A stretch of 64,000 nucleotides of DNA from an uncultured Nitrososphaeraceae archaeon. GTDB taxonomy: Archaea; Thermoproteota; Nitrososphaeria; Nitrososphaerales; Nitrososphaeraceae. The DNA is taken from positions 608,001 through 672,000 of the forward strand of contig CAVZZA010000001.1 of NCBI GenBank assembly GCA_963779615.1, given 5' to 3'. The position numbers and the translations under genes were made by a program. The notes under the pieces are model-generated. The model did no database searches. It saw only the letters and a list, made by a program, of their open reading frames with translations, and was not told the DNA's origin. Shown here piece after piece: positions 18,379 to 40,099 of this stretch (positions are counted from its first letter, which is position 1; each line of letters begins with the position of its first letter).

Positions 18379-18457
18379 AATAGTACTTTTTTTAATTACA
18401 TATTTTTATTGTAGTTAATGGATTGGATTAAATGTAAATATTTCACATCATAAAAAA

Positions 18458-19498: not shown

Positions 19499-19530
19499 AG
19501 CGGGCCTGGTGGGAAGTGATTCAAAATTGA
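19499..19530. repeat. att-like copy of the tRNA-Lys 3' end with GTGATTCAAAA junction
   Basis: AGCGGGCCTGGTGGGA versus tRNA AGCGGGCCCGGTGGGA (40005-40020). Confidence 0.7.
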
Positions 19531-19963
19531 AAAGCACAAAATATTCATGATGTTAGGAGACCGAATGACATTAGGGATAACTTTCATTTTTATCACCATT
19601 CACTCTTTTATTGTCTCTTTAGCAATCTTGTAATTGACTTTTTGGTTCAGGTACAATTCATACAAATCGTTCACTCTTACTTTTGCGTATTTGCTAGTTT
19701 TGATTAGTGGTACTTTTATGATTAAAGGGATCTTTAGCAGTATTTATGTTTTTGAACGCTACTGGAAAGATTAGATATATGGATAAAATGAAAAGTTGGT
19801 TCAACTTAAAACAGTCTTAGATATTTAATTAGTTCGTATCAACTCATAATAGTCGGATAGTTTGCCAATGCCTGAACATTGACATAGATGCTTTACAGAT
19901 CCATAAGATATTTGATTAATCAACTTTCACATAAAAGAAAGACCTTTCTATTACCTCTACTTT

Positions 19964-21393
19964 GTGTATAGAAGATTATCTATGCGAAACGAGAATAAGG
20001 TGGTTAAAAATGTAATCTATGGAATATCAGGTTTGACTTTACTCCTTTTGATAATATCTTTGGGAGCACAAACACCTTCTAGTGCTCAGCTTCCACCTGA
20101 TGTGGATGGGAACAAAACAACAATACAACTAGCTTTGAAAACAGAATACATCAGGGCGAGAATTATGTAAAACTTTTAGCACAAGATATAGAGAACAGAC
20201 TCAAAAAAGTTGCGGCAATACTTGAACTCACAAGCATGTTACCAGAAGTAAAAAACACCTCCTCTGCGCATATGCTTAACGATACCATAGAACAGCTAAA
20301 AGGAATGCCTCAAAATGCAGATATTCCTAAAAGACAGGTGGCCAAAGATATTTTAGGAAAATATGGCGAGTTTCAGGTGGTGTTCTTTGTGATGCCAAAT
20401 GGTGACATGTATATTGAGGAGCCATATTCTTATCAAGAGAATCTCTCTAAAACTAATTTTGCATTCAGGGATTACTACAAAGGTGCGATAAATAATCATG
20501 ATACTTTCTTAGGTAATGTAATAGTGTCTGCTTCCTCTGGCCAGAATCAGGCTGTGATAGCGGTGCCAATCTATTCAGGGGCAAATGGATCATTAACAGG
20601 AATATGGGCTGGTGGCTTGGATTTGAATGATTTTAACGAGAGCCTTCAATTATTGAACCTGTCTAACAATGAACGCATAGTATACGTGGATAATCTTGGT
20701 CAGGTGGTTGCAGACTCAGACAAACAATTATCATACCAAAACGAATCATTTGCCAATCTTCAAGGATTCAAAAATGCCGTTAATGGAAAGTCAGGGACCA
20801 TTAAAGAAATAGTTAACGGCACAGAAATGCTTGTCTCCTACTATCCAATCAAAGCCCTTTCAAGCAATTGGGCAGTTTTGTTAATTCAGCCTTATCATGG
20901 CAATTCCGTTAGCTCATCCAGCACTTATGCATTAACTAATAACGGTATAATGAAAAACGAAATGCAAGAATTGCTGTTACAAAATACATCAAAGTCAAAA
21001 CCTGCTCCTGTTAGACATCCCGGACAACCATCTCATGAAGTCGTATTTGCTCTTCCATTAAGAGAAGACGGAAATGTGTATTCAGGAACAGTGACATTCA
21101 CTGCAAGTAAACCAATAGAGGTAGAAGTACTTCACACTTATTCTCCAAAGGAGAAGCCAGATTCATTACATGGTGAGCCATACCATGCTGTATTGCCAGG
21201 CAATAAAAGTATCGCTATTACTCATCTAAGAGATATAGTTGATGTACCAATAGAGATTAACGGTACCGGAATAAGCTCTGGTTCATTTGATTTTGTAGGA
21301 AATGCACTCGTGTTTCATAAAACAACTGGTGAACCATTTACAGTGACATACACTGTTGATGCCGTTGTCAAGGACTTGAATACAAATAACTAG
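19964..21393 (+). CDS. Secreted dCache-domain protein with C-terminal His-rich domain; frameshift near 20130-20165
   Basis: Signal peptide in 19964-20170; second frame open from about 20135; NFAFRDYY, AVIAVPI, YVDNLGQVVADS (dCache); C-terminal HPGQPSHEVVFALPLREDG..FTASKPIEVEVLH..GNALVFH. Confidence 0.75.
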
Positions 21394-21798
21394 TTAGATA
21401 ATGAGATCCTGCAAGTGTGTTAAGCATCATAGAAACAGTTGCACAGAACTGAGCCCTCATTTACGCCATTTGTTTTGGCATATTCATATTTTACCTATGG
21501 CCCATTAATTTGCCATCTGGGGTAAATTTGCCAGCTGCATATACACCTTCGATTTTCATCAACTGACCTAAGTAAACAATGAAGTTTGTTTTTCTGTAAA
21601 GTATAAAGCATTCTTCATGCAATACTATCAATGCAGAGATAAAAATACAATTAGGTTTTAGGATATTCCTTATTCTAATTTATTAAGAATTCAATTTCAT
21701 ATAACAGACATGATAATGGTAAATGTTTATAAAAAAGGAGTAGTAGTTAATTATTGTTGAATCTTTCAATTTAGGGGTTGAAACGAAAGATTACTTTT

Positions 21799-21834
21799 GG
21801 GCACCAGGGGAATGTGATTCAAAAATGAATGAAT
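21799..21834. repeat. Degenerate att-like tRNA-Lys 3' end copy with GTGATTCAAAA junction
   Basis: GGGCACCAGGGGAATGTGATTCAAAAATGAATGAA. Confidence 0.55.
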
Positions 21835-21951
21835 GGATCCTAAATGTGGTTCCCAGTATTATGCATATTAAAAACAGTGCATATTTTGAGATTATTGTTT
21901 TTAATATTTGCTTAAACCATCTATAAAACAATAGGTTAATTGCATTAAATC

Positions 21952-22090
21952 TGCTTTGTCACATAACTGTGAAATTCGTCAATTTATAATATAGCACATA
22001 TCGGCACAATACGAATATCGATTATTCCCCTTGCGGAAATAAAACTAACACATCTAAAAAATACGAAAATTTGAGTTACGCAACAAATCA
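21952..22090. mobile_element. ~139-bp MITE, second family (copy 1)
   Basis: Imperfect TIR TGCTTTGTCACATAACT / AGTTACGCAACAAATCA; flanking direct repeat CATTAAATC; inverted homologue at 52105-52241. Confidence 0.88.
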
Positions 22091-22714
22091 CATTAAATCA
22101 TTAAATAATTAAATAAATAATCAATTATGTTCAACCTAAATGATTTCGGTTAGTTTATTCTAAGAATGTACCGATATCCTTTTTATTTAAAATATTGTAA
22201 AAGTATTTGCAGTTTGCAATAAAATGCAAAAGTGCTTGCCCAGCAATAGGATAGTGCGACATAAAGAACAACCAGCCTGCAAATGGACATATTCTGATGA
22301 GAAAATACTGTCATTGAAGGATGATTATAGATGATGCATCTTGCTAATGTACTCTATTAAAAAGGGCGTCATCTTCCTCCTTCAATGATTATCTAATAAC
22401 ATAATTACGAGAAGAAGTGATATTGATCTGTTTCAATAAAATAGTTATTCGTTTATATTATTTTCAATCCTAAATAGGGTATTTCAAGTAAGATTAAAAA
22501 TGAAGTGAGTAGTTTTTTAAAAACTCAATTAAATAAGGAGGACAGCTAACTCAAAAACAATAATTTTTTTCTTTCTTAGATGACCTTTTTAATTGTGTTT
22601 TTTAGCTTAAAGGATATCAAGTAATTTGAGATTATTCCAAATAAGTTACATACATATGTTTTTGGGAAAATAGTGCTTACAAAACTGTATAAAAAAATTA
22701 ATAAAAATAAAAAA

Positions 22715-23396
22715 CTATGGTGTTGTAAAGTCTATCTTTGGAAAGGTTATGCTTTCTATGTTTTCAGTGCACCCAAATGCTCCGGTCCAGGTACCCTTGT
22801 TAAACTTTGTTGTGGGACCTTCAGTTGATGTACAGAACACTGTTTTGTCTATGGGGATTTCGGCCACATCAAAGTAGTTTATTGTCCCGTATACTTTATA
22901 TCCGTAAATTCCCGGGCTTTGAATCTGCTTTGAGACATAGTGCCCTGGGTCACCAAACAATTCGCTTAGCTTCACATTCTTTTTGATTTCATCTGCCTGT
23001 GTGATGGAGGAGGCGGCATTAAAGCTGCTTATGCTCTTGAAGTAGTACTTGTCGATTGTCAAGTTGGCGCCCTTCAGCGGCAATTTTGTTGCGGCATCGC
23101 TTAGCAAAATCTCCACATCATGCTCTCCTGTGTGTACGCCTGGGACTACTCCATATGCTGGCTCATTCGGAGTGCCCTACAACCACACTTACGGGGTTTG
23201 CGTTCTTTTGATCAGGATCGCTGTTGTCTGGGTTTATTGTTGTTGATGCGTGTGGGAATGCATATGCTGTTCCTGAATATAGAGACAGTGTAGCAGTAGC
23301 AGCAAGTATTACAGCCATAACATAAAATCCAATGTTATTGGTTTTTAAATTCTCACTCTCACTTTTGGAGTTTTTAATCATTGATAAAAGTTGCAA
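22715..23396 (-). CDS. Secreted hypothetical protein split by a one-base insertion near 23169
   Basis: Joining frames gives ..AYAFPHAS..VSVVVGHSNEPAYGVVPGVHTGEHDVEILLSD..; two C-terminal Cys. Confidence 0.7.
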
Positions 23397-23518
23397 CAGG
23401 GCATTTTAATACATTTTGAACGATCACTATATGATTTTATTCTGTAGAGCGTTAGCAGAACAATTGAATGTACCGATTTGTTGTAATTCTTAAGTCATAG
23501 TAAAAACAAAAAAAAGCA

Positions 23519-24184
23519 ATGAAACACAAATGCTTGGATCACTCCAATGCAAAAAAGATACTATTACCAACAATAAGTATTATAGCTATACTGAGCGTTA
23601 TTTGCGTATCATCATCGATGTCACCCAACCAGGCCTTTGCAAGCCACAGCTTTGAGCTTGGTGTGTCGGGAAGCAGCATACCTGACAACACCCACATTGC
23701 ATTGGGCGGCATAACGCTGGCCAAGGGCGAGATACTGCCACTCTATGACGCAAGCCCCAACTTTGTGGCGGGTCATTTTCTAGCCAAGGTGCCATGTGAC
23801 TCCAAAAAGGTTCCAAAGGTTACCGTGATAGCCGGGCACATTGATGAGCACCACGACACGACCCACGTTGACAAGGTGCCGCTGTACTACATTTCACACG
23901 CATCGGACCGCCTAAGCTGCACCTACCATGCCCATATCCCAGACCCATTAAATGGTGGCTCACCAAGAGTGACAGACATTGATTTTGTCAACCTCTCCTC
24001 CTCACCTATTGAATTCAACGGTGGGGATGCAGTGGACATCAACGTTCAAAGGTCACTTGGAAGCATAGTTTCACAGTCCTATGAGGGTGATACCAAACTG
24101 CCTAGCACCATAAAGCACGGGAACCCGGTATTTGACCTGAACGACAACAACCCAAACAATGATGGATTGGGGGCAGCAGATTAA
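23519..24184 (+). CDS. Secreted His/Cys protein, LYD-GH-PC-CxYH family (divergent paralogue)
   Basis: LPLYDASP, GHFLAKVPC, CTYHAHI, VTDID; extra GHIDEHHDTTH loop. Confidence 0.75.
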   Translation: MKHKCLDHSNAKKILLPTISIIAILSVICVSSSMSPNQAFASHSFELGVSGSSIPDNTHIALGGITLAKGEILPLYDASPNFVAGHFLAKVPCDSKKVPKVTVIAGHIDEHHDTTHVDKVPLYYISHASDRLSCTYHAHIPDPLNGGSPRVTDIDFVNLSSSPIEFNGGDAVDINVQRSLGSIVSQSYEGDTKLPSTIKHGNPVFDLNDNNPNNDGLGAAD

Positions 24185-24648
24185 TTACAGAAACACCGAA
24201 ATACAGTCTTCTCCCTCTCTTTTTTTCTTTTCCGTTTATTGAACATTAAATGTGTTTATGTATAGGAGTATTCTTATGGCATGCTAATTTGGTTTATGGT
24301 GTTTGGGTAAACAGATTTTTAAAAGTTACTAAAATTAGTACTTATTATTACTATCTGTTTGTTATCATTTTAAAAATCATTCACCCAAATAAGAACAAAA
24401 GATGGTGAAGGTATCGCCCTTACCATCTTTTAATGAGAACGCAATAAGTCCTAATTGTTTATCGCTTTCCCGGACAAGGTCCAGCGTAATCCAACCGGCA
24501 TAAGCAATTAATCAAAACTGCAATATAAGGCTCTTGATACATTCGTAGAATGTACAAATCGTTACTGGTAACATTTTCAATTGTTGTGTTGATTTAAGCT
24601 GATGGTCCAAAAAAAACAAAAGGGTAAAAAAAATGGTTGGTTTATGCC

Positions 24649-25290
24649 CTAAGAGGATGGTGTGGTGGTAGCACTAGATGTTTGGTTCATGGCAGCCATG
24701 TTGGTCATCTGACTAACTCCTCCTCCTCTCTCTTCAATTGTCATGCCGCCCTGGCTAGCAGGTGCTTGTGCTGGGTCTTTCATTATCTCGTTAATGCCTA
24801 CAATTGCAACGCTGTCCTGGGGGAATGTTATCTCTTTGTTGGATGGATTGTGCAATGCCAGGTCAGTTATCAGCCATCCATTTGGTCCCATCTCAGAGGC
24901 AAGGTCGGTATGGTACATGCAAGTGACACCGGTTATTGACATGTTGGCAACTGGATGTAACTCAAGTGGTCTCAAAAATGTCTGGTCTCCGGCTATTCCT
25001 CCAAGCACCTGCAATAATGGCTCTGATTTTTCATTGCATGGTATGTTGACCGATACATGTCCATCCATTATGTGAAAGCTGCCTGTGTCATAAAGGTGGA
25101 TGTGGGCTCCTGCTGAAACTGATTTGGATTCTAGCAACAGAGTGACCGAGTCCCTTGTAATTACATCTTCTGCCATTGTTTGATTTGTCCCCTGGGCTTG
25201 GGCGGAAACATTGAGCGCCGGGATAAAGGATGACGCAATAGTTGCCGCTAAAACTATAAATAAAAAGTATTTAGTATACATTAATGGCAT
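24649..25290 (-). CDS. Secreted His/Cys protein, LYD-GH-PC-CxYH family
   Basis: RDSVTLLLE, HIHLYDT, GHVSVNIPC, CMYHTDL, ITDLAL; paralogue of 46118-46774. Confidence 0.78.
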   Translation of the reverse strand: MPLMYTKYFLFIVLAATIASSFIPALNVSAQAQGTNQTMAEDVITRDSVTLLLESKSVSAGAHIHLYDTGSFHIMDGHVSVNIPCNEKSEPLLQVLGGIAGDQTFLRPLELHPVANMSITGVTCMYHTDLASEMGPNGWLITDLALHNPSNKEITFPQDSVAIVGINEIMKDPAQAPASQGGMTIEERGGGVSQMTNMAAMNQTSSATTTPSS

Positions 25291-25460
25291 ATAATAAACA
25301 AAGGTAATAAAGTTATGGAAAATTATTCGAAAACTTGAAATTTTTACAGTTTACAATCGTCATATAAATAAAATATTAATGAATCCTTTAAAATAATCAA
25401 ATTTGTTGCAGTCCAGCTGTAATTCAAAAATGAATGAAACGCATTTTTAATTCTAAGAAT

Positions 25461-25765
25461 GTCTACAACGCAACCAAGGCGGCCGTGCGCTCTTTTGCGC
25501 CCACCTGAACGGCCGATCTAAAGCAGCGCAGGATACGCGTCAACGCCATCAGTCCCGACCCAATAGAAACACCAGGCTTTAATGGCCTGCTGGAGACTGA
25601 CGAGCAGAAGGAGCAAATTAGAAAGGGGCTTTTGTCCGCCGTGCCTATGGGCGGATGGGAAGTCCTGACGAAATAGCGAAAGCCGCCACATTCATAGCGT
25701 CAGACGACAGCAGTTTCATCACCGGCATTGAGCTGTTCGTCGATGGGGGCATGGCGCAGATCTAG
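25461..25765 (+). pseudogene. C-terminal fragment of a short-chain dehydrogenase/reductase
   Basis: VYNATKAAVRSFAPT*TADLKQRRIRVNAISP...[35 protein letters not shown]; YxxxK motif; GC-rich. Confidence 0.88.
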
Positions 25766-26714
25766 GCGACTTGGACCGCGGGTATTTGGCCCCGGCTACA
25801 GATAATAATCACTAGCGGTGAAAGTGACACACGAGCCAATGTCACCTGGATTGAAACAGACCGTCTTTCCAATGGGGTTTGCCTTTCCCAAGTTTTTGCA
25901 GCAGTAATGCAAATTCGCCACCGCATCGTCGGTGTCGTGCACTGCTGAAAGACCAGTCTAACAACTACAACTGTTCCATAGATCCATACCAGCGGTGGTA
26001 TGGTATATGCTTCCTCCATGGTGAGCGGGTATGCGCATGTCAAAAGCGCAAACATGCTGCGTCAGCCCCGGAAAGAGGCTATGTGAGTGGCAACAGAAAA
26101 CACACCCATCCCATCCTCAACGAATGGTTTTGGCAAATGCCCTGCCCTGTTCTCCTTATTGCGTTATATAAGCAATGTCAGCATAGATATACTTAAGGAT
26201 AATTCATTAAAGATTGGTGTATAAAAGTACACAACTCCCCCCTATACTTATATATAAACATTTTGGCAAGGGTTGGGTTCTCCTTTTTTTAAGTGGGCCG
26301 TGTCGCATAGAGGGATCCCCTGCTTTTCGGCCTCAGCGATGGTTACGGGCAACCCCAAAGCGGGTCATCCTCATCCAATGTGCCAAGGTGAAGGGTGTCT
26401 GTTCGCGTGGAAGGGGAGGGGATTGAGTCCATACACGATTGCTTTGGCATCCGAGGCCCATGCCTGGCGGGTGCTGTATGCAGCGGTCATCCAGAACCCA
26501 AACAGGCAGCAGCAGGAAATACCGTCATGCGCGTGCATGAGGAGGTTATGAGGAGGTTATGGTGACTGCATACATGAAACATGGACATGAGGAAAGTACA
26601 ATGCTGTTAGCAACAAATTGATGTAAGGAGGCAACAGTGCCATGCTGCTCCATCATGTTTTTAAGGGGTTTTTGAAGGTGGTTTTTCCTTTTGAGTGCTG
26701 CCCTAGCCACCGCC

Positions 26715-27995
26715 TCAACCCTTCACGTCAAAGACACCCATCCACCCAAGCTCCGAAAACTCATTCACATGCGAATGGAACATGTACCTGCCATCAAAGC
26801 CAAACTTAAACTCCATTACCCCCCTGTCCCCCTGTCCAAGGGTGACGATGTCGTTGAGGTATGACTCCTCTGTGGAGGTGCCACCGGGATAGTAGTTGAA
26901 CATGTTTCCGTGCATGTGAAAGGAGTTCACCGGGTCAAACTCCAGCATGTTGACCAGGTAAATGCGGTAGTCAACGCCCCTTTGCAGCGGAATGGGGTGG
27001 TCCATGTAGTCAAACGCCCTTCCGTTTACCGTGTAGACCTCATTGGTGTGCTCAAACTCCTGCGGCATGTAGTCTTCCCTCACCTCCTCGGGGGTTGGAA
27101 TCCTGCTTGGGCCGACACCCTCCTTTTCATAGTCCAGGTCATAGCCGTTCATCATCATCGCCATCTCAACCATGTGGGGCCTTGGCGTCTTTGGGTCGAT
27201 GATGAACATGCCATACAGGCCCTTGTTGATGTGCTGGTCAATTGGGGTTACGTGGCAGTGGTAGGGGTAAACGCCATGGGGCTGGGCAACAAACGTGTAG
27301 GTGTAGCTCTGCCCGGGCATTATCTGGCCCCCCGGCCCCTCCATCCCGTCCATGCTTGCCGGGTGGACGGAATGCGTATGCAGTGAGTGGGGGTGGCTGT
27401 TCTCCTTGCCGTTTATGACGTTTATCTTGACAACATCCCCCTCCGTGACCCTCATGGTTGGTCCGGGTATGGTGCCGTTGAAGGTCCAGGCGTTGTCAAA
27501 CGTCAAGCCATGGTTTGCGATGGGTATCGACTGGTTTTCCTTGACAACCAGGGTGAACTCCCTTGTCACCTGCTTTTCACCGCCAGGCAACGTGTCTGTT
27601 TTCACGTGGCCGCAGTTAAAGTAGGTGAGGTACTCTATGGATGTTGGCTGCTTGCCCGTGTCCTGGCTGCAGTTTTTCAGTTTGTCGTAATCCTGAACCG
27701 AGGGCGACTTGGGGCCAGCGCTGTCGGAGGGGGATGATGATGAGGAGGTGGTGGTGGTGGGGCCAGTGGTGGACTCATCGGCATCGCCAGGTGAGGAACT
27801 GCTGCCGCCATGGTCGTCTTCTGCCTCATCCGCAGAGGTGGGATCCAAAAAGCTTGAGGATGCCATTGTCCTGTACGGTGACAGCGACGGCAGCAGCAGC
27901 AGGCTTAAGACAGCCAGCAGCCCAAAAAGAAACCTGGCTGTGCGAAGCAACTTTAACATGTCAACACCACCCAAAAAGTGACCAGTCATTGTCAT
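26715..27995 (-). CDS. Secreted two-domain multicopper oxidase (type-1 Cu site in domain 1)
   Basis: HPHSLHTH, YPYHCHVTPIDQHINKGLYG, NSFHMHG, MFHSH; start overlaps the stop of the upstream cupredoxin-like gene; likely start ATG about 27959. Confidence 0.92.
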   Translation of the reverse strand: MTMTGHFLGGVDMLKLLRTARFLFGLLAVLSLLLLPSLSPYRTMASSSFLDPTSADEAEDDHGGSSSSPGDADESTTGPTTTTSSSSSPSDSAGPKSPSVQDYDKLKNCSQDTGKQPTSIEYLTYFNCGHVKTDTLPGGEKQVTREFTLVVKENQSIPIANHGLTFDNAWTFNGTIPGPTMRVTEGDVVKINVINGKENSHPHSLHTHSVHPASMDGMEGPGGQIMPGQSYTYTFVAQPHGVYPYHCHVTPIDQHINKGLYGMFIIDPKTPRPHMVEMAMMMNGYDLDYEKEGVGPSRIPTPEEVREDYMPQEFEHTNEVYTVNGRAFDYMDHPIPLQRGVDYRIYLVNMLEFDPVNSFHMHGNMFNYYPGGTSTEESYLNDIVTLGQGDRGVMEFKFGFDGRYMFHSHVNEFSELGWMGVFDVKG

Positions 27996-28843: not shown

Positions 28844-28862
28844 TTTTAGATTCTTAAATAGC

Positions 28863-28885
28863 TTAGGTCAGCCTATTTATTAAGG
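28863..28885 (-). promoter_or_regulatory. DtxR/MntR-type operator next to a TATA-like box upstream of the cupredoxin-MCO operon
   Basis: TTAGG-TCAG-CCTAT at 28863-28876, 20 nt before the ATG, adjoining TTAATAA. Confidence 0.55.
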
Positions 28886-29031
28886 TATTTTTATTAATAT
28901 TTGTTATTACTGAGTAGTAGTATACATAAACCTAAATTTGTTTGTAGGTGTGTATCATATAATAATTTATAAGAAAAAAATTTTGTATGTATCAGACGAA
29001 TATCGTCCATTGGTAAAGCTTTAGAATGAAC

Positions 29032-29722: not shown

Positions 29723-29799
29723 GAATGAACAAAAAGTATTCTGACATGTGTTGGTAAATCGACCATTAACTTTACAGTTATGTAAACATGCAGATGCTC

Positions 29800-30273: not shown

Positions 30274-30513
30274 ACACCATGCAAAATGGGGATAGGATCA
30301 TCACAGCTATGAACATTTAAAGAAAAATAAAACAATGAACACTTGTGGTTTATGTAATTATGTAAATTGGTGTACTATCTCATGGTTACAGAAATTAATG
30401 GGTCTAAATTATACGTTGCAGTATTATAAGCCCATTTATCTTGTTTTAAAAAATACTGACTAATAAAAAAAATAAAAACCTATTAAAAAAAAATTAAATA
30501 AAGAATGTTGTTG

Positions 30514-31605
30514 TTAACTGCCTGAAACCCTTAACAAATTACCCGCCTTGTCTAAAACTGTGTTTATTTCACTAATGGTTTGCTTGATTTCCTCCACTGA
30601 TGCGTTACTGTCTATCTGTGTCCTTAGTTTTTCCCTTAACAGTGATTCTCCCTGGTCTGACAACTCTTTGCCTATTGGTTTTTCCAAATATTCAAAATTG
30701 TCCAAATAGGCTGTTGTTGCTAGTTCTTTGGCCTTTATTGAATCATTAGCTGAGTATGCTAATGTCACTTGATTAAGTAATGACCTTATATTAGAGATAT
30801 AATCCACAGAACTTTCATTAGTTGATGTTGGTGTATATGGAGTAGCAGATGATTTTGATAGTTCGGCATTAATTTCATTAATTATTGAATTTATTTCAGA
30901 TGGGTTTTTTTGCTGCTGAACAGAATTGGTTAAGTTGTTAAACAGTGTAGAAATTGTCTCCCTTTCATTTGCTATCGATTTTGTGTCGTTGAATATCTTG
31001 TGGGCCCTGTCCATAAATGCTGACCCGTCTTGGTACTCAAGTATTAGTGTGATTTTGCCATCCTTTACGCCCTCTTCATACTCCCCTTCTGACGTTGTCA
31101 GCAGATCCTGGATTACGGCGATATTGTGGTCTGTGCTGTTCAGTGTTGTTGCAGGTACGACAGTAGCTATGACTTTGTTTGACATGTCAACTGAACTCTG
31201 TGCCTGTTTGCTAAACTCTTCTTTTGTGCTGTTGTTAGGTCCTGTGGGTGATACTAGGTTTGATAATAAATAAAGGTCACTGGTGTACAACTCATTTAGT
31301 TTTGAATCAGTATTGTTTAATGGTATGGCTATAAGTGATAAAACCTCCTCTATTGGATGGCTTGTGTGATTATATGCCAATGTATTGTTGTCGATGTTTT
31401 TGTTGTATACTGCCTTTTCAATATGGCCTATTATCTGCTCGATGTTTGAATGAAACTTTACATACTCGGTTCCATTACCCTGGGTATTGTTTGCCTGGGC
31501 AAATGATGATTGTGATGGTGATATGGTATTGCATATCACTAAAGTTATGGCAGCCACAACAATTGCGATAAATGCCTTATTTCCTAATTGAATGTTTATA
31601 AGCAT
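30514..31605 (-). CDS. Secreted helical protein resembling the extracellular region of FTR1/PbrT-type metal permeases
   Basis: Signal peptide; EQIIGH, HTSHPIEE, EYEEG, EYQDG, ELATTAYLDNFEYLE. Confidence 0.65.
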   Translation of the reverse strand: MLINIQLGNKAFIAIVVAAITLVICNTISPSQSSFAQANNTQGNGTEYVKFHSNIEQIIGHIEKAVYNKNIDNNTLAYNHTSHPIEEVLSLIAIPLNNTDSKLNELYTSDLYLLSNLVSPTGPNNSTKEEFSKQAQSSVDMSNKVIATVVPATTLNSTDHNIAVIQDLLTTSEGEYEEGVKDGKITLILEYQDGSAFMDRAHKIFNDTKSIANERETISTLFNNLTNSVQQQKNPSEINSIINEINAELSKSSATPYTPTSTNESSVDYISNIRSLLNQVTLAYSANDSIKAKELATTAYLDNFEYLEKPIGKELSDQGESLLREKLRTQIDSNASVEEIKQTISEINTVLDKAGNLLRVSGS

Positions 31606-32168
31606 GTTTTGGGTTTTTCTTTGAAAATCTATTTAATCCATTATCCGATTCTCCATTTAGAGAATACTTGGTAGAATATTATTTTCTTTTTTTTGGTTGT
31701 CTGTGGTTGAATGTTTTTTAATTCATTGAACATGTGATGTTTGTTTTCTTGTTGCCCTTAACACACACACTTAAAATTAAACCTATTGTTACTAACATGT
31801 TGTTAAATAAAGCATCCATACTAAAGATACGAACTATTAATGAAATAAATATACACATACATAATTAAGTTTCTAACGTTTACTACAAAATTATTCAGCA
31901 ATTGCAAAAATGCATTATTGAAATAAGCATCGCGAACTTTGATTGAATTTCAGTTTTATTTGATTATTTTACTGGATACTACGGGTTATATATCTATTCC
32001 CAAGAAAGAGAATATCAAATATCCCCTAAATTGAAATATCGTTACTAGCAAACTAAACAGTATATGGTGAGCATCTGTTGTGTTATAGAACATACTATCC
32101 TAACTATTTTACAGAAAGATCTGACAAAATCAACTTATAGATGAATATGGTAAAACAATTATACCTGA

Positions 32169-32402
32169 ATGAATGGAACTTTGTTTTGCCATGTTATGCT
32201 GCTTATTGTAGGAGTCTTGGCCTTTGCCTTAGAGGATTCTCAGAAAAGTAATGCTTCCACAGATAGCTATAACCCAGATAACCCAAACGATTCGCCATTC
32301 TCTTTACCATTTGATTCAGGTGTTGCAGATCAGTCAGACGATGGAGATTATCAGTCAGACGATGGAGATTATCAGTCAGACGGTGACATACCATTCCCAT
32401 AA
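32169..32402 (+). CDS. Small secreted acidic protein with DDGDYQS (21-bp) repeats
   Basis: Signal-like N-terminus, Asp-rich tail; paralogue at 8854. Confidence 0.6.
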   Translation: MNGTLFCHVMLLIVGVLAFALEDSQKSNASTDSYNPDNPNDSPFSLPFDSGVADQSDDGDYQSDDGDYQSDGDIPFP

Positions 32403-32672
32403 CGTATTTCCGCCTCTAAATATTAAAAAAATACTATAAAAAATTTAATCCATTTCTTTTCCTTTTTAAAATACCCAAACGATTCGCCATGTCAGGTTTT
32501 ATTAACAAAATTGAATGTCTATAAAAATTCTAGGAAATTTTTCTTTTAACTGTGTTATTAAATTTAGCAGTCATATCAACTTCTATTGAAAATCAATAGG
32601 AAAAATATCTTATGGAGAAACAATACTATCTTGTGTATATTTTGTAATGATATTTTAACAATAGAGAATCAC

Positions 32673-32714
32673 GATCAGGTTTATATTTTTGTTAGGCTTA
32701 CCTAATCATGTCTA
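32673..32714 (+). promoter_or_regulatory. TATA box + TTAGG-N4-CCTAA operator (copy 3)
   Basis: Identical 42-bp block; palindrome at 32692-32705. Confidence 0.7.
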
Positions 32715-32895
32715 TTAAATAACCCTATAGACACAAAAAAATAGGCGCAGTCTACTACCATTCAAGTCCTGGGTATGTCATATACATCGACCTCATTTGT
32801 CATCTGGAAAACTTGCAAGCACGACAATAAAGGAGTGAGTCAGTCACTGGAAATGACATTGGCATTCTTACCATCACTCCTTTATTGTCTCTTTG
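32708..32895 (+). ncRNA. Candidate structured small RNA, copy 3
   Basis: Perfect 16-bp stem 32823-32838/32874-32889 with a C-G pair replacing the U-A of copy 1; inner GUCA/UGAC stem. Confidence 0.5.
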
Positions 32896-33170
32896 ATACT
32901 AATACCTGTCATTGAGTAACAATAGGTTTTTTGTTCTTTATTCTCACCTCATATGTACGGATAAATAATTCAAAGCCTTTTCTTTTTTTTATGATTAAAA
33001 ATAGTTTAAAATTTTGACTTTATCTTTAGATGACTAATAATTATTGTTATAATAAGGATCTAAGAATCAATTATGTGCAATGTGTTCTTTTCAAAAGATA
33101 TTTGATTTTATAATACTTAGCTGGATAAACCATCCAACAATTTATATACAGTGCAAAAAACTTTGAATTA

Positions 33171-33386
33171 ATGTCAACTTTTGATAAAACCCTTGTTAGC
33201 ACATATGATAATTCAAAAATGGCCATTGGTTTTTTAGCAGCCATTGTAGTGTTTGGTATTTTTGTGGTAGGTTATGATCAAGGGCAAATTTTCAGCCTCG
33301 TTCAGGGCAATCAGGCATTTGATATGAAATACTTGCATGAGATTACTCATGACATGAGGCATGCAGCAGGCTTTCCTTGCCATTAG
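33171..33386 (+). CDS. cbtB: Cobalt transporter subunit CbtB (copy 2)
   Basis: Protein identical to 2675-2890. Confidence 0.92.
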   Translation: MSTFDKTLVSTYDNSKMAIGFLAAIVVFGIFVVGYDQGQIFSLVQGNQAFDMKYLHEITHDMRHAAGFPCH

Positions 33387-33417
33387 CAATTAACTATATA
33401 TTATATTATGGTGTTAA

Positions 33418-34149
33418 TTGATGTTGAAATCGCTGCTCTTTGTTCTCATCTCTCTTGTTTCCGGGGCCATATCTGGTGTGGTTTTGGCCGGCATGAACTT
33501 AATCGTTGTCGAGCCATTTATCGACAAAGCCATAGGTTTGGAAACCTCCAAGGCTGTTGCGGCAGGCGAAAGTGTGGACACCAATGAGCAAAACTCATAC
33601 AGGACATGGCAAAAGTCCGGAAGTTTCATTGCGGGCTCCATCTTGGGAATGGCGTTTGGCTCCCTCCTTGGCATAGTTTATGTTTTTGGCAGAAGCTATC
33701 TCCCTTTTTCTGGCGACATCAAGAGGGCGGTTTTCCTGTCACTAGTCATCTGCCTGGCTTTGTTTGTCATCCCTTTCCTCAAGTATCCCGGAAACCCGCC
33801 TGCTGTTGGAAACCCGGACACCATATACCTAAGGGAAAGCCTGTACCTTGGGTTCTTGGCAGTATCCGCAGTATCTGCCCTGGGTCTTGGGGTTTTGTTT
33901 TACAGGTTTAGGGGTGTACGCCATATCCGCATAGCCATACCACTGGTTTATGCCGTGATAATGTCCAGTGCGTTTGCTTTGTTCCCACCCAACCCCGACA
34001 AAATCACCATACCGATGGACTTGGTGAGTTCTTTCAGAATCGCGAGCGGCCTAACCATGGTCGGATTTTGGGTGGTTCTTGGTGTTGTATTTGGATTGCT
34101 TTGGCGCAATCTTAAGCCCCACGGACCTTCTAAAATAACTGCAATTTGA
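33418..34149 (+). CDS. cbtA: Cobalt transporter subunit CbtA (copy 2)
   Basis: Identical to 1894-2625 except the last ~14 residues. Confidence 0.9.
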   Translation: MMLKSLLFVLISLVSGAISGVVLAGMNLIVVEPFIDKAIGLETSKAVAAGESVDTNEQNSYRTWQKSGSFIAGSILGMAFGSLLGIVYVFGRSYLPFSGDIKRAVFLSLVICLALFVIPFLKYPGNPPAVGNPDTIYLRESLYLGFLAVSAVSALGLGVLFYRFRGVRHIRIAIPLVYAVIMSSAFALFPPNPDKITIPMDLVSSFRIASGLTMVGFWVVLGVVFGLLWRNLKPHGPSKITAI

Positions 34150-34639
34150 TTTTGATTTTGATTTTGTGCATGCATTTTCCCTCTATTTTTTTTAGTTTAT
34201 TTTTTTTCATCTGGCCCTCTAAACCTGTAAAATCAAAAATAATCAATTTGATGCTTAACATCTAATACTTGTAATATTTGAAGTTGGATTAGCAATTACA
34301 TTTGTTATAGGGTAGTAACAGGAATGGTTGATTAGATTATGTATGCTGCTAATACTAGTGTGAACAATGGTGCTGATAACACCAAAAAACCGTCATGTTA
34401 TTATTATCTTTTCATTAAAAAACACGAAAAATAAAAAATTTCTTCAATTAACGATAATCTGCAGCTATAATTGTATTTCATTGGTGGGTCCCAGCAAAAC
34501 TATAAGTAAGAAAATCGACAATGCTGAGGCTGGAATGGATATACAGAGAAGACACTTATTACTAACCAAAGGTTTTCTTAGTTTTCTTACCAAAGATGCA
34601 CACTGAGGGCACATTAATTTTTGAATCCCTTGTGTTTTA

Positions 34640-35572
34640 CTATTCCGCTATCATTTTCAAATCATAGGCCAGAAATAAATTGGTATGAACAGGTCCGTGA
34701 ATGATTTGCATAATATCACTGTATGGCTTCTTATCGTCTATCAAACTTAGCAGAAGAGATAAACCATCCTCTAATCCGGATACCGAAGTAGACCTAATAT
34801 CTGCCGTAAGATAAGATCTAGTCGGATTAGGTAGTTCCAGAGGCTTTAAGTCGTCTCTGAATAATTCTAGTGCCTTGATTGCAAGTCCTTGTGCATTCTG
34901 ATAATTAGAAATATCGGCGATTCTAGAAGCACTTGGGATTTGATTATCTTCCATACCCATAGAATCTGGAGGAGAATCAATAGGGGAATCCATATCTGAC
35001 GTGTCCATCATATTTCCCATGCTACCACTCGTAGCAATAACGGGTTCAATGCCATACGCTATCGCATATTCTCTGAGAATTTCGTCTGTTATGTTAGCAA
35101 TATTAAGAGCTTGTATTGTCGAATTTCTTAGGTCTCTGGAATCTATCTCTGAGACAATCTTGTTGTCCAAGAATCTTGATGCGTTGTCAATCGTCTTATT
35201 GATGCGTAACAGGGAATCTGTCTTTTCCGAATCAACAGCTATTGATTCAATTAATTGACGGAGGTCGTCTAGGTGAGGAATATGGAAAGTAGTAGTACCG
35301 TTACTCCTAGTTTGAATCTCTGTAGCGTCTGCCACATGTTTTAATGCCAAATTGTTGTCAGAATGATTCAAGTTATAATTAATGAGTCCTAATTCTGTTT
35401 TCAATTGATTGGCAGTTGCCAATAGCGATGCATTTTTGTCGGATAAGAATACATGGGCTAAAGCAGGTTCCAGATCCAATGATGCCACAATGAGTAAAGT
35501 GGATAAAAGGGGTAAAACTAGACAATTTACAATGCCATCTGGGGCATTAGTCCTCGTATTGTATCGGTGCAT
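34640..35572 (-). CDS. Secreted helical protein with predicted N-terminal His and C-terminal HxxxH (paralogue B)
   Basis: PALA|HVF; Met-rich loop; YQNAQGLA; MQIIHGPVHTNL. Confidence 0.78.
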   Translation of the reverse strand: MHRYNTRTNAPDGIVNCLVLPLLSTLLIVASLDLEPALAHVFLSDKNASLLATANQLKTELGLINYNLNHSDNNLALKHVADATEIQTRSNGTTTFHIPHLDDLRQLIESIAVDSEKTDSLLRINKTIDNASRFLDNKIVSEIDSRDLRNSTIQALNIANITDEILREYAIAYGIEPVIATSGSMGNMMDTSDMDSPIDSPPDSMGMEDNQIPSASRIADISNYQNAQGLAIKALELFRDDLKPLELPNPTRSYLTADIRSTSVSGLEDGLSLLLSLIDDKKPYSDIMQIIHGPVHTNLFLAYDLKMIAE

Positions 35573-36655
35573 GCAGAAGATTGAGAAATATGACAGAGCG
35601 CATGTTATAAATGAAATGCCATGTTGTGATTCAATGACACTTTTGTCATCTACAACATCAAACTAATAAACAAAGAAAGAATTTACCGCTAGGTTGAAAA
35701 TTCTGGAGTGTAGCTGCTTTTCGAATCTCCAAGTTTAATGTCATCTTCGCCATCTTGTAACTTATTTACTCTATTATTTTCCATCTCAACCTCCACATAA
35801 TCGTCTTCGTCTTTCTTTGTATCCTTTGTCTTTTCGTTCGTGAATAGATCAACAATGGCCAGCTTTGATCCTTGCTTGTCTATATCTGAACCAAACATGT
35901 CGACTTCAGCAAATTCTATTACCTATATACCTTGTTGTACTTGTAGTTTATAGTATAATTAAATTGAACATTAGTATCAGGGTTTTATAATGGGACTAAA
36001 GTTGTCATTATGTGAAATATGATGAAACGTACATAGGTAAAAAAGAGATAACATCTTGACTTACAGAGCCAGAGACTTGTATTGATAGATTCGTTAGATG
36101 TGTTTTTAATTATTATATAATTGTTAAAAAATACTTCAAGGCATTAGCAGGATAAGAAAAAGTTTGACAATATTGGATAATTATCTCGATTAACAATCAC
36201 TACAACAGATTAGTAAATGGTTATGAGTTTGTTGAAAGCGTTACATAGGCAGGTTTAACAGTGAGCAAAATGTTTTTTGGGTTTGGTTGCAGTATGGTAA
36301 AAAAATGTTCTGTTTTACTCACTTGGAGCTTTAAATGATATTCCGTCTTCTTTCTTCCATGCTGCATATGGTGAACCCTTGTAAGTTGCCATAACTGGGT
36401 ATTTGTTTTTCCATTCATACACAGAATTTGTAAATATAACTAATTTGTCATCGGGGATTATTTCTGCAAGTTCTATTGTTTTTCCGGGATTGTCGTCTCC
36501 ATTGTTCCCATTACCTTGAGGAGTATGACTTTGTTGTTGATTGTTTTGATCTGTTCCTTTGGTTGATTGCCGTTGTTCTTTGATGTTATTTTATGAGGGT
36601 TGTATTTTTTGTTTCCAGTTGGGGGGAATACCCAAAAGAATAGTGGCTGATTGCG

Positions 36656-37294
36656 TTATTCGCCACGGAGGAATTCATATTGTGAGGGTATGGCATTAGG
36701 GGGTTTACCATAAACTATGGATATTACATCATGGGCATGCAAAACAATATCTCTGTGGCTTGTTCCTTCTGGAACCTTTGTTCCATTGACATACACATTT
36801 AATGCATTGGCATTATTTACAACATTATCAAATACTTGAGTATTGTTGAATTTTCTGTTCCATATGTCAAAGAGATGCCCTAGGTTAAAGTCTCTTTTTA
36901 CAGGTGCTTCTATGTGAATAACTCCAGATTCATCGTGGGTGTGTATCCAATAGAAACACTTGTCGGTTATACCAATGAGTGCTGGAACCGTAGAATGTTG
37001 ACCATTGATGAATATGTCAAGGTGTGCATGTATGTGAAAGCCAAGTTGTTCCATGGCGCCGCATTGTATGCCATCTATAGGCGCTGATGAAGATAACGCA
37101 GTGGCAGTTGATGATATGGATGGTGGTGGTGGTGGTGGTGGTATTGATGGGGTTTTAAGATTAGCCACGTTCAATCCAACAATACCTGCTGTAGCTACAA
37201 CAGCTATTGCTATCAGGCTAACCATGACAACTGTTTTGGCCTTTTTATTTCCTTTGCCTTTGACCCCATTACTATTTTCACGATTATCCTTCAT
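36656..37294 (-). CDS. Membrane-anchored His-rich hypothetical protein
   Basis: TM anchor, poly-Pro linker, FHIHAHLDIFING, CFYWIHTHDESGVIHIE. Confidence 0.8.
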   Translation of the reverse strand: MKDNRENSNGVKGKGNKKAKTVVMVSLIAIAVVATAGIVGLNVANLKTPSIPPPPPPPSISSTATALSSSAPIDGIQCGAMEQLGFHIHAHLDIFINGQHSTVPALIGITDKCFYWIHTHDESGVIHIEAPVKRDFNLGHLFDIWNRKFNNTQVFDNVVNNANALNVYVNGTKVPEGTSHRDIVLHAHDVISIVYGKPPNAIPSQYEFLRGE

Positions 37295-37599
37295 GTTTTC
37301 TCAATGCGCTGAAAAATAAATGTACTGAAGCTTATTATAATACACCCAACGATTAATTTTTTCAAAGTAGTATTTTACTTCTTGCTAATTTAGTTCTAAA
37401 TCGCAGCAAACATTATGCTATATTAATTAGTAACGGTGGTGCATTCCACGAATATATCACGAACCTTATATAGCATTTTCTTAATGTGGTTCTAATATGG
37501 GAGGTGGGCTCGCGAAAGCCGTTTAGACAGAAAATGAAACCATATAAAATACCTTTTGCGTTAATCACCGCTGGAAAGGGATAGTGAAGGAATAAAACT

Positions 37600-38192
37600 T
37601 TTATCCTTTTCTGGTTGGTGGTGGATTGCTCCCATATACGTTATCGAAACTTTCTGTCCTGTCCTTGATATATTACGTTGTCCTTTCTGTCATGCTTTTC
37701 TCATAACGGGAATGGATGTGATGACTTGTTTTCAAAAACCTGCAGGCCAGTAGATACCAAGTTCCCCCGTCTGTTGATATGGGTCATGCTTTCAATGAAC
37801 CTTGACCAATCCTGAGATAAACCTCTCTGCTACAAACATGCTTCTCCTTTTTGAGATTGCCAGTGCGAGAATCTGCTTTTTTTTGGCTTGCCGCCCAAAG
37901 ATAGCCGGATACACTCGGAACCAACCTTGATCAATGTTTCATCAACTACAAACCCAAAAACATTTTTTCTTGAGGATATCCTCCCAGGCTTGTGCTTTTG
38001 AATCCAGTTCCAAATGAAAACGTGGTTTCGATTGATAAAGCAGGGATAGCCTTTCTGAGGCCCCCCTAATGACAAACCGGAAAAGCACAGATACAAACCA
38101 TAACCAATACGCAATGAAGGCGCTATGTTGCTCTTATTGCAAATGCAGGAAATGGGAATCCTCAATCTATGCAATTATCGTTAAGTTGACTG
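37600..38192 (-). mobile_element. Heavily degraded IS6-family remnant
   Basis: YGLYLCFSGLSL, NHVFIWNWIQK, VDETLIKVGSE; TIR-like CGTTAAGTTGAC at about 38179-38190. Confidence 0.82.
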
Positions 38193-38261
38193 GAAATGTG
38201 AGTTAGCATTTGAACTCAATATGAGTTTATTAGTGAACCCATGTTTATAGTCAAATTTATT

Positions 38262-38290
38262 GCGGGGCCGGTGGGATGTGATTCAAAAGT
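38262..38290. repeat. att-like copy of the tRNA-Lys 3' end with GTGATTCAAAA junction
   Basis: GCGGGGCCGGTGGGAT versus tRNA GCGGGCCCGGTGGGAT (15/16). Confidence 0.75.
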
Positions 38291-38628
38291 AAACGGAATC
38301 CAAAATAAATTTGATAAGATTTGGATATCGTTATTTAGCTAAATCAACTACCTTTTACTTTGACTATACCTTAGATTTAAATGACCTTACGTGCCATGAC
38401 TATAAGAAAGTATAGAAAGCCTTCATAGTGTGCAGGTAATACTATATGTGTATTTCTCTGTCTCTCATGAAGTAGGTCATCAAAGAGATTTTCTTTTTTT
38501 ATCTATAATCCCTTATCGATATGGGGCCATATGCAAAATATCATCTTAAACGATATCCACAAAAAGAAATTTAGAGCATACCATAGATAAAACTGTCATT
38601 AGTGGGTTTTGAATGCCTCTCCATTATC

Positions 38629-39855
38629 TCATCCATTCTTTTTACTATCTTGGCTATCTCCGTTATAGTCTATAGGTCTGCCATTAATGTCGATTACAGT
38701 ATTTGCAAGTATTTTATTATTTTCCTCTGCCCCTTTCTCTATGGATATGGCATCACTTAATGAGGAGGAGGAGGGCGATGATGGAGATGAGTTGGTGTTT
38801 CCTAATTTAACAATGTTATTATGTATTGTATTATTAGACGATTCTTTGTCTAAATCTATTCCCCCACTGCTGTTTGCAACAGTATTGTTATAAATCTCAT
38901 TGTTGTTAGACTCTGAAATAACTATAGCTTTGTCTTCATTACTGACAATGTTATTTCTAGCAACAGAATCATGCATGTTTCGGCTAAACATTATACCCAT
39001 CTTGGCGTTATTGTAGGCCGTGTTATTTTCTATCGTTATGTTAAAACAATCAAGGGAACAGATTATGCCAATAGAGCCATTGTCATGCACTGTATTATTG
39101 CGGATTGTCATGTCATGAGTACCGGTGTGGGGGTCAAGACCGTAATGGATATTGTCATGGATATGGTTATTTTCAAGTACCATTCCACCAACGCCCTTTG
39201 AGTAGAAAGCAAAGTATAGATTGTGTATATCGTTTCCACTTATGGTGCTGCCATGACCGCCTTCGTACCTTAGACCGGTAAGTCCTCCACCATATCCCGA
39301 TTCATACCCGAGATATGCTATCTCTGAATTAGTTATATCGGTAGTTCCTGTTGCCTCAGGTTCTACTACTATGTAGGGTCTTGGAGTGCCAATTTCGACA
39401 TCCTCTCCATCCCTATTTGAGTCAGGACTTAATGTATAATTATTTGTTGTAGGATTCCATGAAGTTATCTTTACGGAATCAATCTTTAGGCTTCCAGATA
39501 TGCGTATGGGATTTGCAGTGACTCCATCTGCGGATATCTTTAGCCATGAAGTGTCGCTAGAATTGATATATAGGGCAGCATTCTCGGCTACTGTGATTCC
39601 AGCATTCAATAACCATTCGCCATTATTCCCTTTTTGAAGTATGCTGGGATCTTTGAGTTGATTATTGATATCTGTGAGACTTGCAGAGCCACACGTTATT
39701 GTAATTATCTTTTCAGATGAATCATATGTTATGCATGTAGTAACAGCAGGGTTATTTGTAGATTGGGCATAAGCCATTAGAGAGGGAGGCAAGGAATATA
39801 TGATTAGTAAAAATATAATTGCAAATAATGGTAATAATATTCTGGATATTGTCAT
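38629..39855 (-). CDS. Secreted right-handed parallel beta-helix protein (NosD/AlgG-like)
   Basis: NSEIAYLGY, YGLDPHTGTHD and repeated I.NN..HDN rungs. Confidence 0.82.
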   Translation of the reverse strand: MTISRILLPLFAIIFLLIIYSLPPSLMAYAQSTNNPAVTTCITYDSSEKIITITCGSASLTDINNQLKDPSILQKGNNGEWLLNAGITVAENAALYINSSDTSWLKISADGVTANPIRISGSLKIDSVKITSWNPTTNNYTLSPDSNRDGEDVEIGTPRPYIVVEPEATGTTDITNSEIAYLGYESGYGGGLTGLRYEGGHGSTISGNDIHNLYFAFYSKGVGGMVLENNHIHDNIHYGLDPHTGTHDMTIRNNTVHDNGSIGIICSLDCFNITIENNTAYNNAKMGIMFSRNMHDSVARNNIVSNEDKAIVISESNNNEIYNNTVANSSGGIDLDKESSNNTIHNNIVKLGNTNSSPSSPSSSSLSDAISIEKGAEENNKILANTVIDINGRPIDYNGDSQDSKKNG

Positions 39856-40006
39856 AATTTTGTACCCTTATCAAATTTTCACATCATTATTGATAAACTT
39901 TCTTAAAATTTTACTGTCCGTTTATTATATGGAAGACAAAGGAATCAACTGTCGTTTATGAACAAATACACTAAAACTTGGGGTAAAAAAGCGTTCATTA
40001 TAGAAG

Positions 40007-40099
40007 CGGGCCCGGTGGGATTCGAACCCACGACAGCCGGATTTCTTTCCATTTCTTTAGTTAAAAGTCCGGTACTCTACCTGGCTGAGCTACGGGCCC
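40007..40099 (-). tRNA. tRNA-Lys(UUU) with 19-nt intron at 37/38
   Basis: GGGCCCG acceptor stem, anticodon stem CCGGA/TCCGG around CTTTTA-intron-A, T arm GTGGGTTCGAATCCCAC. Confidence 0.95.

Follow-up and report, generated by a model that had tools for sequence, protein, structure and literature searches.

In Thaumarchaeota, 57% of integrated elements lie in tRNA genes and attachment (att) sites are short, with a median of 17 bp, according to the portions of the survey by Krupovic et al. (2019, PMC6563490) on which we draw. In this work, we analyse a 64,000-nucleotide stretch of DNA from an uncultured Nitrososphaeraceae archaeon (assembly GCA_963779615.1, contig CAVZZA010000001.1, positions 608,001 to 672,000; the whole stretch is called the window, and coordinates without a contig name refer to it), in which the 3′ end of a tRNA-Lys gene recurs downstream of the gene, joined to a conserved non-tRNA sequence. 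We consider it likely that these repeats are the att junctions of mobile elements that integrated in tandem, and site-specifically, into the tRNA-Lys 3′ end. The process is a familiar one that is unusually extensive in this genus, and what is notable is the scale of the arrays and the conservation of one arm across elements that target different tRNAs.

The locus has counterparts in three described systems. The thaumarchaeal survey, in the portions drawn on, likewise describes tyrosine-recombinase elements in tRNA 3′ ends (intron-containing ones included), short att sites, cryptic elements made up mostly of cargo and arrays formed by re-use of a site (PMC6563490). The closest formal parallel is found in the ssrA islands of Dehalococcoides (McMurdie et al. 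2011, PMC3146451), which, in the sections of that paper used here, also comprise a dozen or more direct repeats of a small-RNA 3′ end within 100 kb downstream, also have a conserved non-target motif beside each repeat and insertion at the T loop, and also show one fixed position that distinguishes the gene from its repeats; fifteen of these islands lack an integration module and were interpreted as cis-mobilizable elements. Streptococcal cis-mobilizable elements (CIMEs), as presented in the part of Guedon et al. (2017, PMC5704250) consulted, have lost integration and transfer genes while keeping both attL and attR, as the small segments here most likely have, and incoming elements join them in tandem arrays that likewise lie at the 3′ end of a tRNA-Lys gene. 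Literature searches on Nitrosocosmicus and on Thaumarchaeota integrated elements, within the library searched, listed no paper describing such arrays in this genus, and the genus name Nitrosocosmicus is absent from the main text of PMC6563490.

The tRNA-Lys 3′ end recurs in the window

On the reverse strand at 40006/40007-40099 the window carries a tRNA-Lys(UUU) gene whose anticodon loop is followed by a 19-nt intron; ARAGORN recognizes it when introns are allowed, and it is the sole Rfam match in the window (RF00005, 60.7 bits). With the intron option off, ARAGORN miscalls the same 40006-40099 as a 94-nt tRNA-Val(AAC). The last 15-16 nt of the gene (40006-40021) form the core common to the downstream repeats, which we call scars.

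Read on the forward strand, the tRNA end is the 16-mer GCGGGCCCGGTGGGAT, which occurs with up to three mismatches at 40006 (none, in the gene itself), 38262 (one) and 19500 (two); shuffled sequence yields 0.03 such matches on average, and none of 100 shuffles reaches three. The 11-mer GTGATTCAAAA has exactly three perfect matches in the window, at 19516, 21814 and 38278, two of which abut the 16-mer copies at 19500 and 38262 while the third abuts a decayed copy at about 21799 that retains roughly 9 of 16 core positions in a manual alignment. Since the 11-mer at up to one mismatch gives 8 matches against 3.8 expected, it is not significant alone; the composite of 16-mer and 11-mer is. An earlier note on this DNA, made from the sequence without database searches, had reported the recurrence of the tRNA end at 38262, 19499 and, more decayed, 21799, each followed by this junction sequence, and a profile of the whole unit run over the window recovers all three (38261-38306, E 4e-13; 19498-19541, E 1e-9; 21799-21844, E 2.5e-8). 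The junction-only relic that the note placed at about 25419, at the edge of a GC-rich block, was found as well: a variant of the 11-mer, GTAATTCAAAA, stands there without a recognizable core, the profile reports the arm alone at 25420-25440 (E 0.016), and the block begins at 25461. All three tRNA-end copies (38262, 19500 and the decayed 21799) lie downstream of tRNA-Lys on the strand of the gene, and their repetition is far beyond chance.

A family of att-like units across the genome

The scars belong to a larger family in the same genome (3.17 Mb in five contigs, C1 to C5, 92.5% complete). A unit is about 50 nt long. Its core, 14-16 nt from the 3′ terminus of a tRNA, spans the 3′ strands of the T and acceptor stems as well as the discriminator and is joined to a conserved arm. 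In the class to which the tRNA-Lys scars belong (class A), the arm reads TTTAGRTTCC-ATTCA-YTTT-TGAAT-C-ACA on the tRNA strand, upstream of the core, and contains a 14-bp palindrome, ATTCA-N4-TGAAT, that takes the form ATTCAA-CC-TTGAAT, of equal length, in related genomes. A search of the genome with nhmmer finds 18 unit copies at E <1e-4 and 23 at E <0.05, and we put the family at about 22 copies; as a control, the reversed 16-mer has no match against 24 for the true one.

Class A cores match the ends of tRNA-Lys, tRNA-Arg(CCT) and tRNA-Ala(GGC) of the same genome, and that of tRNA-Ala(TGC) with one mismatch. More broadly, 76 copies (up to one mismatch) of the 3′-terminal 14-mers from 35 tRNA genes stand outside tRNA genes, and a few of these will have arisen by chance. 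Nine tRNA genes are followed on their own strand by one to seven downstream copies of their own end: Met by seven, Ala-CGC by four, Ser-GGA and Gly-CCC by three each, Arg-TCT and Val-TAC by two each, Lys by two and a decayed one, and Arg-TCG and Ala-TGC by one each. The sequences that precede these cores form several arm classes, of which class A is one. The tRNA-Met copies (C3:117220-264892), spread over some 148 kb, make up the largest tRNA-anchored array in the genome.

Neither lists of open reading frames (ORFs) nor an all-against-all BLAST of 4-kb flanks from 21 units revealed a gene shared among them, the matches being scattered paralogous cargo and copies of insertion sequences (IS). 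One att-bounded segment, 2.2 kb with a histidine kinase, is present twice (C5:512896-515069 and C5:588711-590876); the copies are 94% identical and their homology stops at the units. The kinase gene is split into two ORFs in one copy, and the outer core is down to 4 nt in the other. The small contig C2 (29.8 kb) holds five tRNA-end copies (three of Val-GAC, one each of Met and Ala) together with two class A-like units and part of an integrase gene; it may represent an island that the assembly left unplaced, or else an extrachromosomal element.

An integrase family beside tRNA genes and units

The genome has three matches to the integrase family PF00589, all beside tRNA genes. Two of them, C3:386291-387649 next to tRNA-Ala(TGC) and C4:212891-213994 next to tRNA-Arg(GCG), are 47-49% identical and form one family, for which tblastn (E <=1e-3) finds two full-length genes and seven fragments in the genome. 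In seven of these nine copies the start is at most a few hundred bases behind a tRNA or scar core; the other two (C2:18887-19479 and C5:240999-241115) are tied to neither. Upstream of the integrase start lies a conserved arm of about 70 nt (the class 1 proximal arm), which occurs 13 times in the genome, with integrase sequence remaining behind four of the copies.

The family is divergent in sequence. PF00589 is matched by five of eight family members, at best with 26.3 bits against a cut-off of 27.1 and over profile positions 4-168 of 172; at E <=0.01 Pfam finds nothing in one intact member, and at E <=1 nothing in three of the eight. A search of PDB sequences with a profile of the integrase returned no recombinase, only three matches at chance level. 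An alignment of the eight members shows R158, K183, H283, R286, H309 and Y317 to be invariant, in agreement with the catalytic set of tyrosine recombinases, and an AlphaFold model (mean pLDDT 70) gave 21 PDB matches at E <=0.001 in Foldseek, led by XerA, VchIntIA (the Vibrio integron integrase), XerH and Cre. From the Pfam matches, the aligned residues and the modelled fold, we conclude that the family is a divergent tyrosine recombinase. Its database homologues are entries from Candidatus Nitrosocosmicus and Nitrososphaeraceae.

A second, unrelated family of tyrosine integrases is encoded at C1:517032-518564 and C4:252155-253373, directly downstream of tRNA-Val(TAC) and tRNA-Arg(TCT), and the matching scars bear other arm classes.

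Integrases and arrays behind tRNA-Lys in related genomes

The pairing of tRNA-Lys with a neighbouring helicase gene, itself 71-78% identical, is kept in genomes of the same genus. The earlier note had proposed looking for an integrase next to an intact copy. A near-full-length divergent tyrosine integrase follows the tRNA-Lys gene in three relatives (G007, G015 and G016), and fragments are found in three more (G018, G012 and G010). In G007 the tRNA is followed by a flank homologous to the window's own, an integrase of 419 aa (sharing 57% identity with the one beside tRNA-Ala in our genome), a helix-turn-helix (HTH) protein, a 640-aa putative ATPase and a class A unit at 8 kb; in G015 by the integrase, a PriX-domain protein and a class A unit at 17 kb; and in G016 by the integrase. 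G018 has a 5.3-kb insert, a second core, a window-like flank and an integrase fragment after tRNA-Lys, and G012 and G010 retain integrase fragments. From its first bases, the sequence after the tRNA-Lys core differs among the relatives. The cores of their units read GTGGGGAT, as does the T stem of their own tRNA-Lys, where the units of our genome read GGTGGGAT.

To follow the units more widely, we searched 61 genomes of the family with a 52-position sequence model (R1) built from 22 units. Ten genomes have matches: 22 in our own (18 of these units match by construction, because they were used to build the model), 19 in G070, 18 in G015, four each in G007 and G003, and one to three weak ones in each of five genomes of other genera, one of them an unpublished genome on which no conclusion depends; G012 has none. 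In the two complete genomes G015 and G070, most matches form a co-oriented array downstream of tRNA-Lys, 15 of 18 within 116 kb and 15 of 19 within 137 kb, respectively, and in G007 three of four do so within 28 kb. The arrays examined showed no genes for conjugation. Comparison of window positions 1-20000 and 20001-40000 with five relatives showed no synteny, only multi-copy IS and scattered paralogues, and window ORFs have eight weak matches in the 20 kb downstream of the relatives' tRNA-Lys.

A model of serial integration and decay

Because relatives have an integrase behind tRNA-Lys together with co-oriented units whose cores match the host's own tRNA, we read the units as junctions of elements inserted in tandem. 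The earlier note had likewise proposed junctions of one family of element attachment sites (attP), formed by serial integration at tRNA-Lys, a view now strengthened by the relatives' integrases, by the host-matching cores and by flanks of the type found upstream of integrases.

In the mechanism we propose, attP would consist of a distal arm (in class A, GATTC-N-ATTCA-N4-TGAAT-C-ACA, the palindrome being a possible protein-binding site), a core of 15-16 nt that repeats the tRNA sequence exactly, from the T-stem 3′ strand through the discriminator, and an integrase-proximal arm, after which comes the integrase gene. The divergent tyrosine recombinase would swap this core with the tRNA end, the crossover presumably falling there; the core brought by the element would regenerate the tRNA, and the displaced copy, now next to the class A arm, would be left behind as a scar at the far junction. 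Further rounds of integration, whether at the restored tRNA or at a unit already in place, would then stack more elements, and loss of integrase genes through deletion and IS insertion would leave att-bounded segments with nothing but cargo, much like bacterial CIMEs.

Layout of the window

The order of features from tRNA-Lys toward lower coordinates, reconstructed from ORFs, Pfam, the unit profile and flank comparisons, can be read along these lines. Directly downstream of the tRNA lies a proximal arm, 'P-prime class 2' (CTTCTATAATGAACGCTTTTTTACCCC..., 39917-40005, reverse strand). A flank homologous to it precedes an integrase gene or fragment in G007, G012 and G018; here cargo comes next, with a 408-aa secreted beta-helix/NosD-like protein (segment 1; 38629-39855, reverse strand) occupying the position that the integrase has in the relatives. 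Class A att unit 1 follows (38260-38311, reverse strand), with its core at 38262-38277 (one mismatch to the tRNA end) and its arm, including the palindrome ATTCA-N4-TGAAT, at 38278-38305. On the older side of this unit is a second flank of proximal type (TAAATTTGACTATAAACATGGGTTCAC, 38232-38259, reverse strand), which resembles the sequence directly downstream of tRNA-Lys in G015 and G070, and behind which the integrase comes next in G015; in the window, a fragment of a high-copy IS family (37640-38184) sits where an integrase would be expected.

Beyond several ORFs, among them CbtA, lies an IS of the same family (29032-30273, reverse strand; DDE_3 transposase ORF 29950-30273), which borders on its left a GC-rich block (25461-29030, 45-56% GC against about 36% for the genome) with a multicopper oxidase gene (26715-27995, reverse strand) and a 283-aa ORF. 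The block is on the element side of the class A arm-only relic (GTAATTCAAAAATGAATGAAAC, 25420-25445, reverse strand), which no recognizable tRNA core adjoins. A further 3.6 kb separates the relic (25420) from class A att unit 2 (21796-21851, reverse strand), whose core is decayed and whose arm is intact with a 4-nt insertion. Then come the 2.3-kb segment, with a 385-aa dCache-domain protein as its cargo (20236-21393, forward strand; ORFs and Pfam), and class A att unit 3 (19498-19549, reverse strand), with its core at 19500-19515 (two mismatches) and its arm from 19516. Because an integrase-proximal arm of about 70 nt, 'P-prime class 1' (19435-19499, reverse strand), lies beyond this unit with the integrase missing behind it, the array extends to the left of the interval 19499-40020 that the earlier note had delimited.

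The note's observation that the window shows no integrase holds: Pfam finds none among 20 window ORFs, and tblastn with the genome's three integrases gives nothing beyond a possible remnant of 19 aa at 15690-15746 on the reverse strand, a weak match (68% identity, E 0.06). Its two small segments with essentially one gene each are also confirmed, as 38306-39916 (beta-helix/NosD-like) and 19550-21795 (dCache), both att-bounded, with one cargo ORF and no integrase. Three integrase-proximal arms are kept all the same (39917-40005, 38232-38259 and 19435-19499), and the flanks at 19500, at 38262 and next to the tRNA resemble sequence found just upstream of integrase genes elsewhere. Each internal junction has the form that tandem integration would give, with a newer element's distal arm, the core and an older element's proximal arm, and at least four or five elements, all lacking an integrase, are stacked in the window.

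The IS family has three copies or fragments in the window (15893-16558, 29032-30273 and 37640-38184), and the complete genome G012, of the same genus, holds dozens of copies of this DDE_3 family. The CbtA (cobalt transporter subunit) region is present twice, in opposite orientation, at 2003-2938 and 33122-34040, and both copies match the same loci in G018. A metagenome contig matches the GC-rich block from 25461 rightward and continues on its left into unrelated GC-rich sequence, and because it diverges there, this suggests that 25461-29030 exists elsewhere in another context.

Decay or mobile cassettes

The small segments might have been one-gene units from the start, and the earlier note had raised integrase-less cassettes mobilized in trans as a possibility. 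We find this less likely than decay of autonomous elements, because proximal arms are kept, integrase fragments remain at 4 of 13 arms and IS have inserted. The older-side flanks are integrase upstream regions and fragments stand beside some units, which implies that the segments once had integrases of their own; and since three integrase-proximal arms remain in a window that has no integrase, the one-gene segments are most likely decayed, once-autonomous elements of CIME type, dedicated cassettes being the less likely choice. A direct ancestor was found for none of the window segments.

Serial integration and decay does not account for everything, and a number of observations weigh against it. 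About 18 of the 22 units in the genome are remote from the tRNA gene that their core matches, and in the array C5:512899-520543 the cores come from three tRNA types and the arms from two classes, neither of which is predicted by simple serial integration at one tRNA. The earlier note had itself taken a motif equally common far from tRNA genes to speak against its reading; with most units distant from their matching tRNA and the ends of several tRNAs represented, this is in part the case, which widens the att reading and does not overturn it. The window has no integrase, nor do most units of the family in this genome adjoin one, and the arrays of G015 and G070 have one near-full integrase each for 15 units. 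Within our genome, the link between class A arm and integrase is seen at a single 39-kb element at tRNA-Ala(TGC), whose distal arm is loosely like class A (some 17 of 25 positions in a manual comparison; E 6.6 with nhmmer). At 71-78% identity in the helicase gene, the nearest genomes are too distant for a segment-by-segment comparison of presence and absence. No excision product or empty site was seen in metagenome contigs on the window, which are short: the best run contains 28% of the sampled words, and in the contigs of four runs on 20111-40110 the joints fall at 29073-37986, in the GC-rich block or between IS copies, none of them at a unit, a result that speaks neither for excision nor against it.

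The dispersed and mixed units may have arisen when elements integrated into units already present whose cores were similar, since every one of the cores concerned finishes with CCGGGCCCG, altered by at most one base. Alternatively, composite islands could have moved, or the repeated units and the very abundant IS copies could have rearranged with one another.

Alternative explanations

A broader reading would make tRNA-Lys, with several other tRNA loci of this genome, a platform for gene capture, at which the few surviving integrases of one divergent tyrosine-recombinase family would still insert, excise and exchange integrase-less cargo in trans, from one array to another and from one tRNA type to another. 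The enzymes would recognize the palindromic arm beside the tRNA-derived core and so build accessory regions of 100 kb, in the manner of integrons and with an independent origin. We regard both the platform and this account of its working as unlikely.

Related to this is the possibility of an integron-like system proper, in which an integrase on the tRNA side shuffles integrase-less cargo modules, each with an attC-like unit of about 90 nt, and in which the small segments are true cassettes. Integrons are also reported in Archaea; their attC sites fold into imperfect hairpins, and their cassettes are mostly co-oriented behind one promoter and one integrase. The arrays of the relatives resemble this in several ways: G015 combines 15 units with one integrase at the tRNA end, and G070 combines 15 units with one integrase and two fragments; their units are closer to each other than to the tRNA; many segments measure 0.1-4.6 kb; and array contents are accessory (kinases, peptidases, methyltransferases, CrcB and photolyase) with few element genes (Pfam, 75 of 82 ORFs). 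The duplicated kinase segment, which ends at units, would also fit. Yet segments can be as large as 24 kb, gene orientation is mixed (the tRNA strand carries 56 of 79 ORFs in G015 and 41 of 95 in G070), and RNAalifold predicts no pairs and no consensus hairpin for 22 aligned units. Moreover, the older-side flanks are integrase upstream regions, with integrase fragments beside some units, and the sole near-full integrase of G070 is 14 kb from the tRNA. On balance, such a system is rather improbable.

Cut-and-paste or casposon-like transposition, with the tRNA-derived 15 nt as a target-site duplication, the arm as a terminal inverted repeat and perhaps miniature non-autonomous copies, would account for the many dispersed units. 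Target duplications of casposons span a range that includes the 14-16 nt seen here. Casposons are also known in this phylum, with tandem integration possible (PMC6563490, in the portions drawn on). Against this, the genome has no match to Cas1 (PF01867) at its 92.5% completeness, it is integrase genes and not transposases that adjoin the units in relatives, and the arm and the opposite flank are not inverted repeats (mean local score 6.1 against 5.8 for shuffled flanks, 21 units), which makes this explanation very improbable. An inverted similarity between arm and opposite flank that we had noticed by eye (11 of 16 positions) is no better than in shuffled sequence and, with Cas1 lacking too, was discarded.

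That the units are a functional RNA or regulatory motif that merely resembles a tRNA tail (a terminator, a processing signal or a tRNA-like small RNA) is hardly credible, even with a short palindrome in the arm and units often 40-240 nt past a gene end, given that 22 aligned units show neither consensus secondary structure nor covariation, that Rfam matches only the tRNA in the window, and that the tRNA-like part varies with the tRNA species and with the host's tRNA sequence, a dependence that fits products of recombination and not a shared RNA.

Because only 37-38 tRNAs were detected in the genome, we also considered that the repeats are 3′ pieces of split or T-loop-interrupted tRNAs; this was rejected, as a search with the tRNA-Lys 5′ end finds only the intact gene, no 5′ halves were found and the units match intact tRNAs. 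The tRNA set itself (37 matches with Rfam, 38 with ARAGORN) leaves several codon families without a detected tRNA. Many of the tRNA genes have long introns and one is seemingly interrupted in its T loop (for example, C1:580033-580163), and the set may include non-canonical introns that standard finders overlook.

Discussion

Serial integration at tRNA-Lys followed by loss of integrases bears on how the accessory genome of large-genome soil ammonia oxidizers is assembled, of which the scars are a record. In two complete genomes from this genus, co-oriented stacks of foreign segments reach 116-137 kb behind tRNA-Lys; such stacks carry genes for sensors, kinases, peptidases, metal handling and the cell surface. 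The 52-position unit model provides a practical marker for the boundaries of such islands in this genus, and since most integrases are gone, it works where searches for integrases fail. Should the surviving integrases still act on segments that have none, accretion and mobilization in cis or in trans would have an example in Archaea.

Measured against described systems, segments 38306-39916 and 19550-21795 fit the definition of CIMEs as att-bounded segments without integration or transfer genes. Mobilization by accretion was shown by experiment in streptococci (PMC5704250, in the part consulted); here, the att-bounded kinase segment found in two copies may be an indirect hint of co-mobilization with a functional neighbour, and some segments could conceivably still move today. 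Integrons likewise place small cargo segments between conserved recombination sites with a tyrosine recombinase at one end, as in some of the relatives, and an integron integrase is among the fold matches of the integrase family; the arrays differ from them in lacking an attC-like hairpin, in the mixed orientation of their cassettes, in a site derived from a tRNA and in the integrase remnants inside them. The thaumarchaeal elements, as far as the consulted portions of the survey describe them, differ in having neither arrays of 15 units nor one conserved arm common to elements with different tRNA targets (PMC6563490). The ssrA islands of Dehalococcoides, in the sections of that paper used here, are bacterial, target a transfer-messenger RNA (tmRNA) gene and depend on a serine recombinase within a six-gene integration module (PMC3146451), whereas the arrays described here belong to an archaeon, are built on tRNA-Lys and other tRNAs, and are associated with a divergent tyrosine recombinase.

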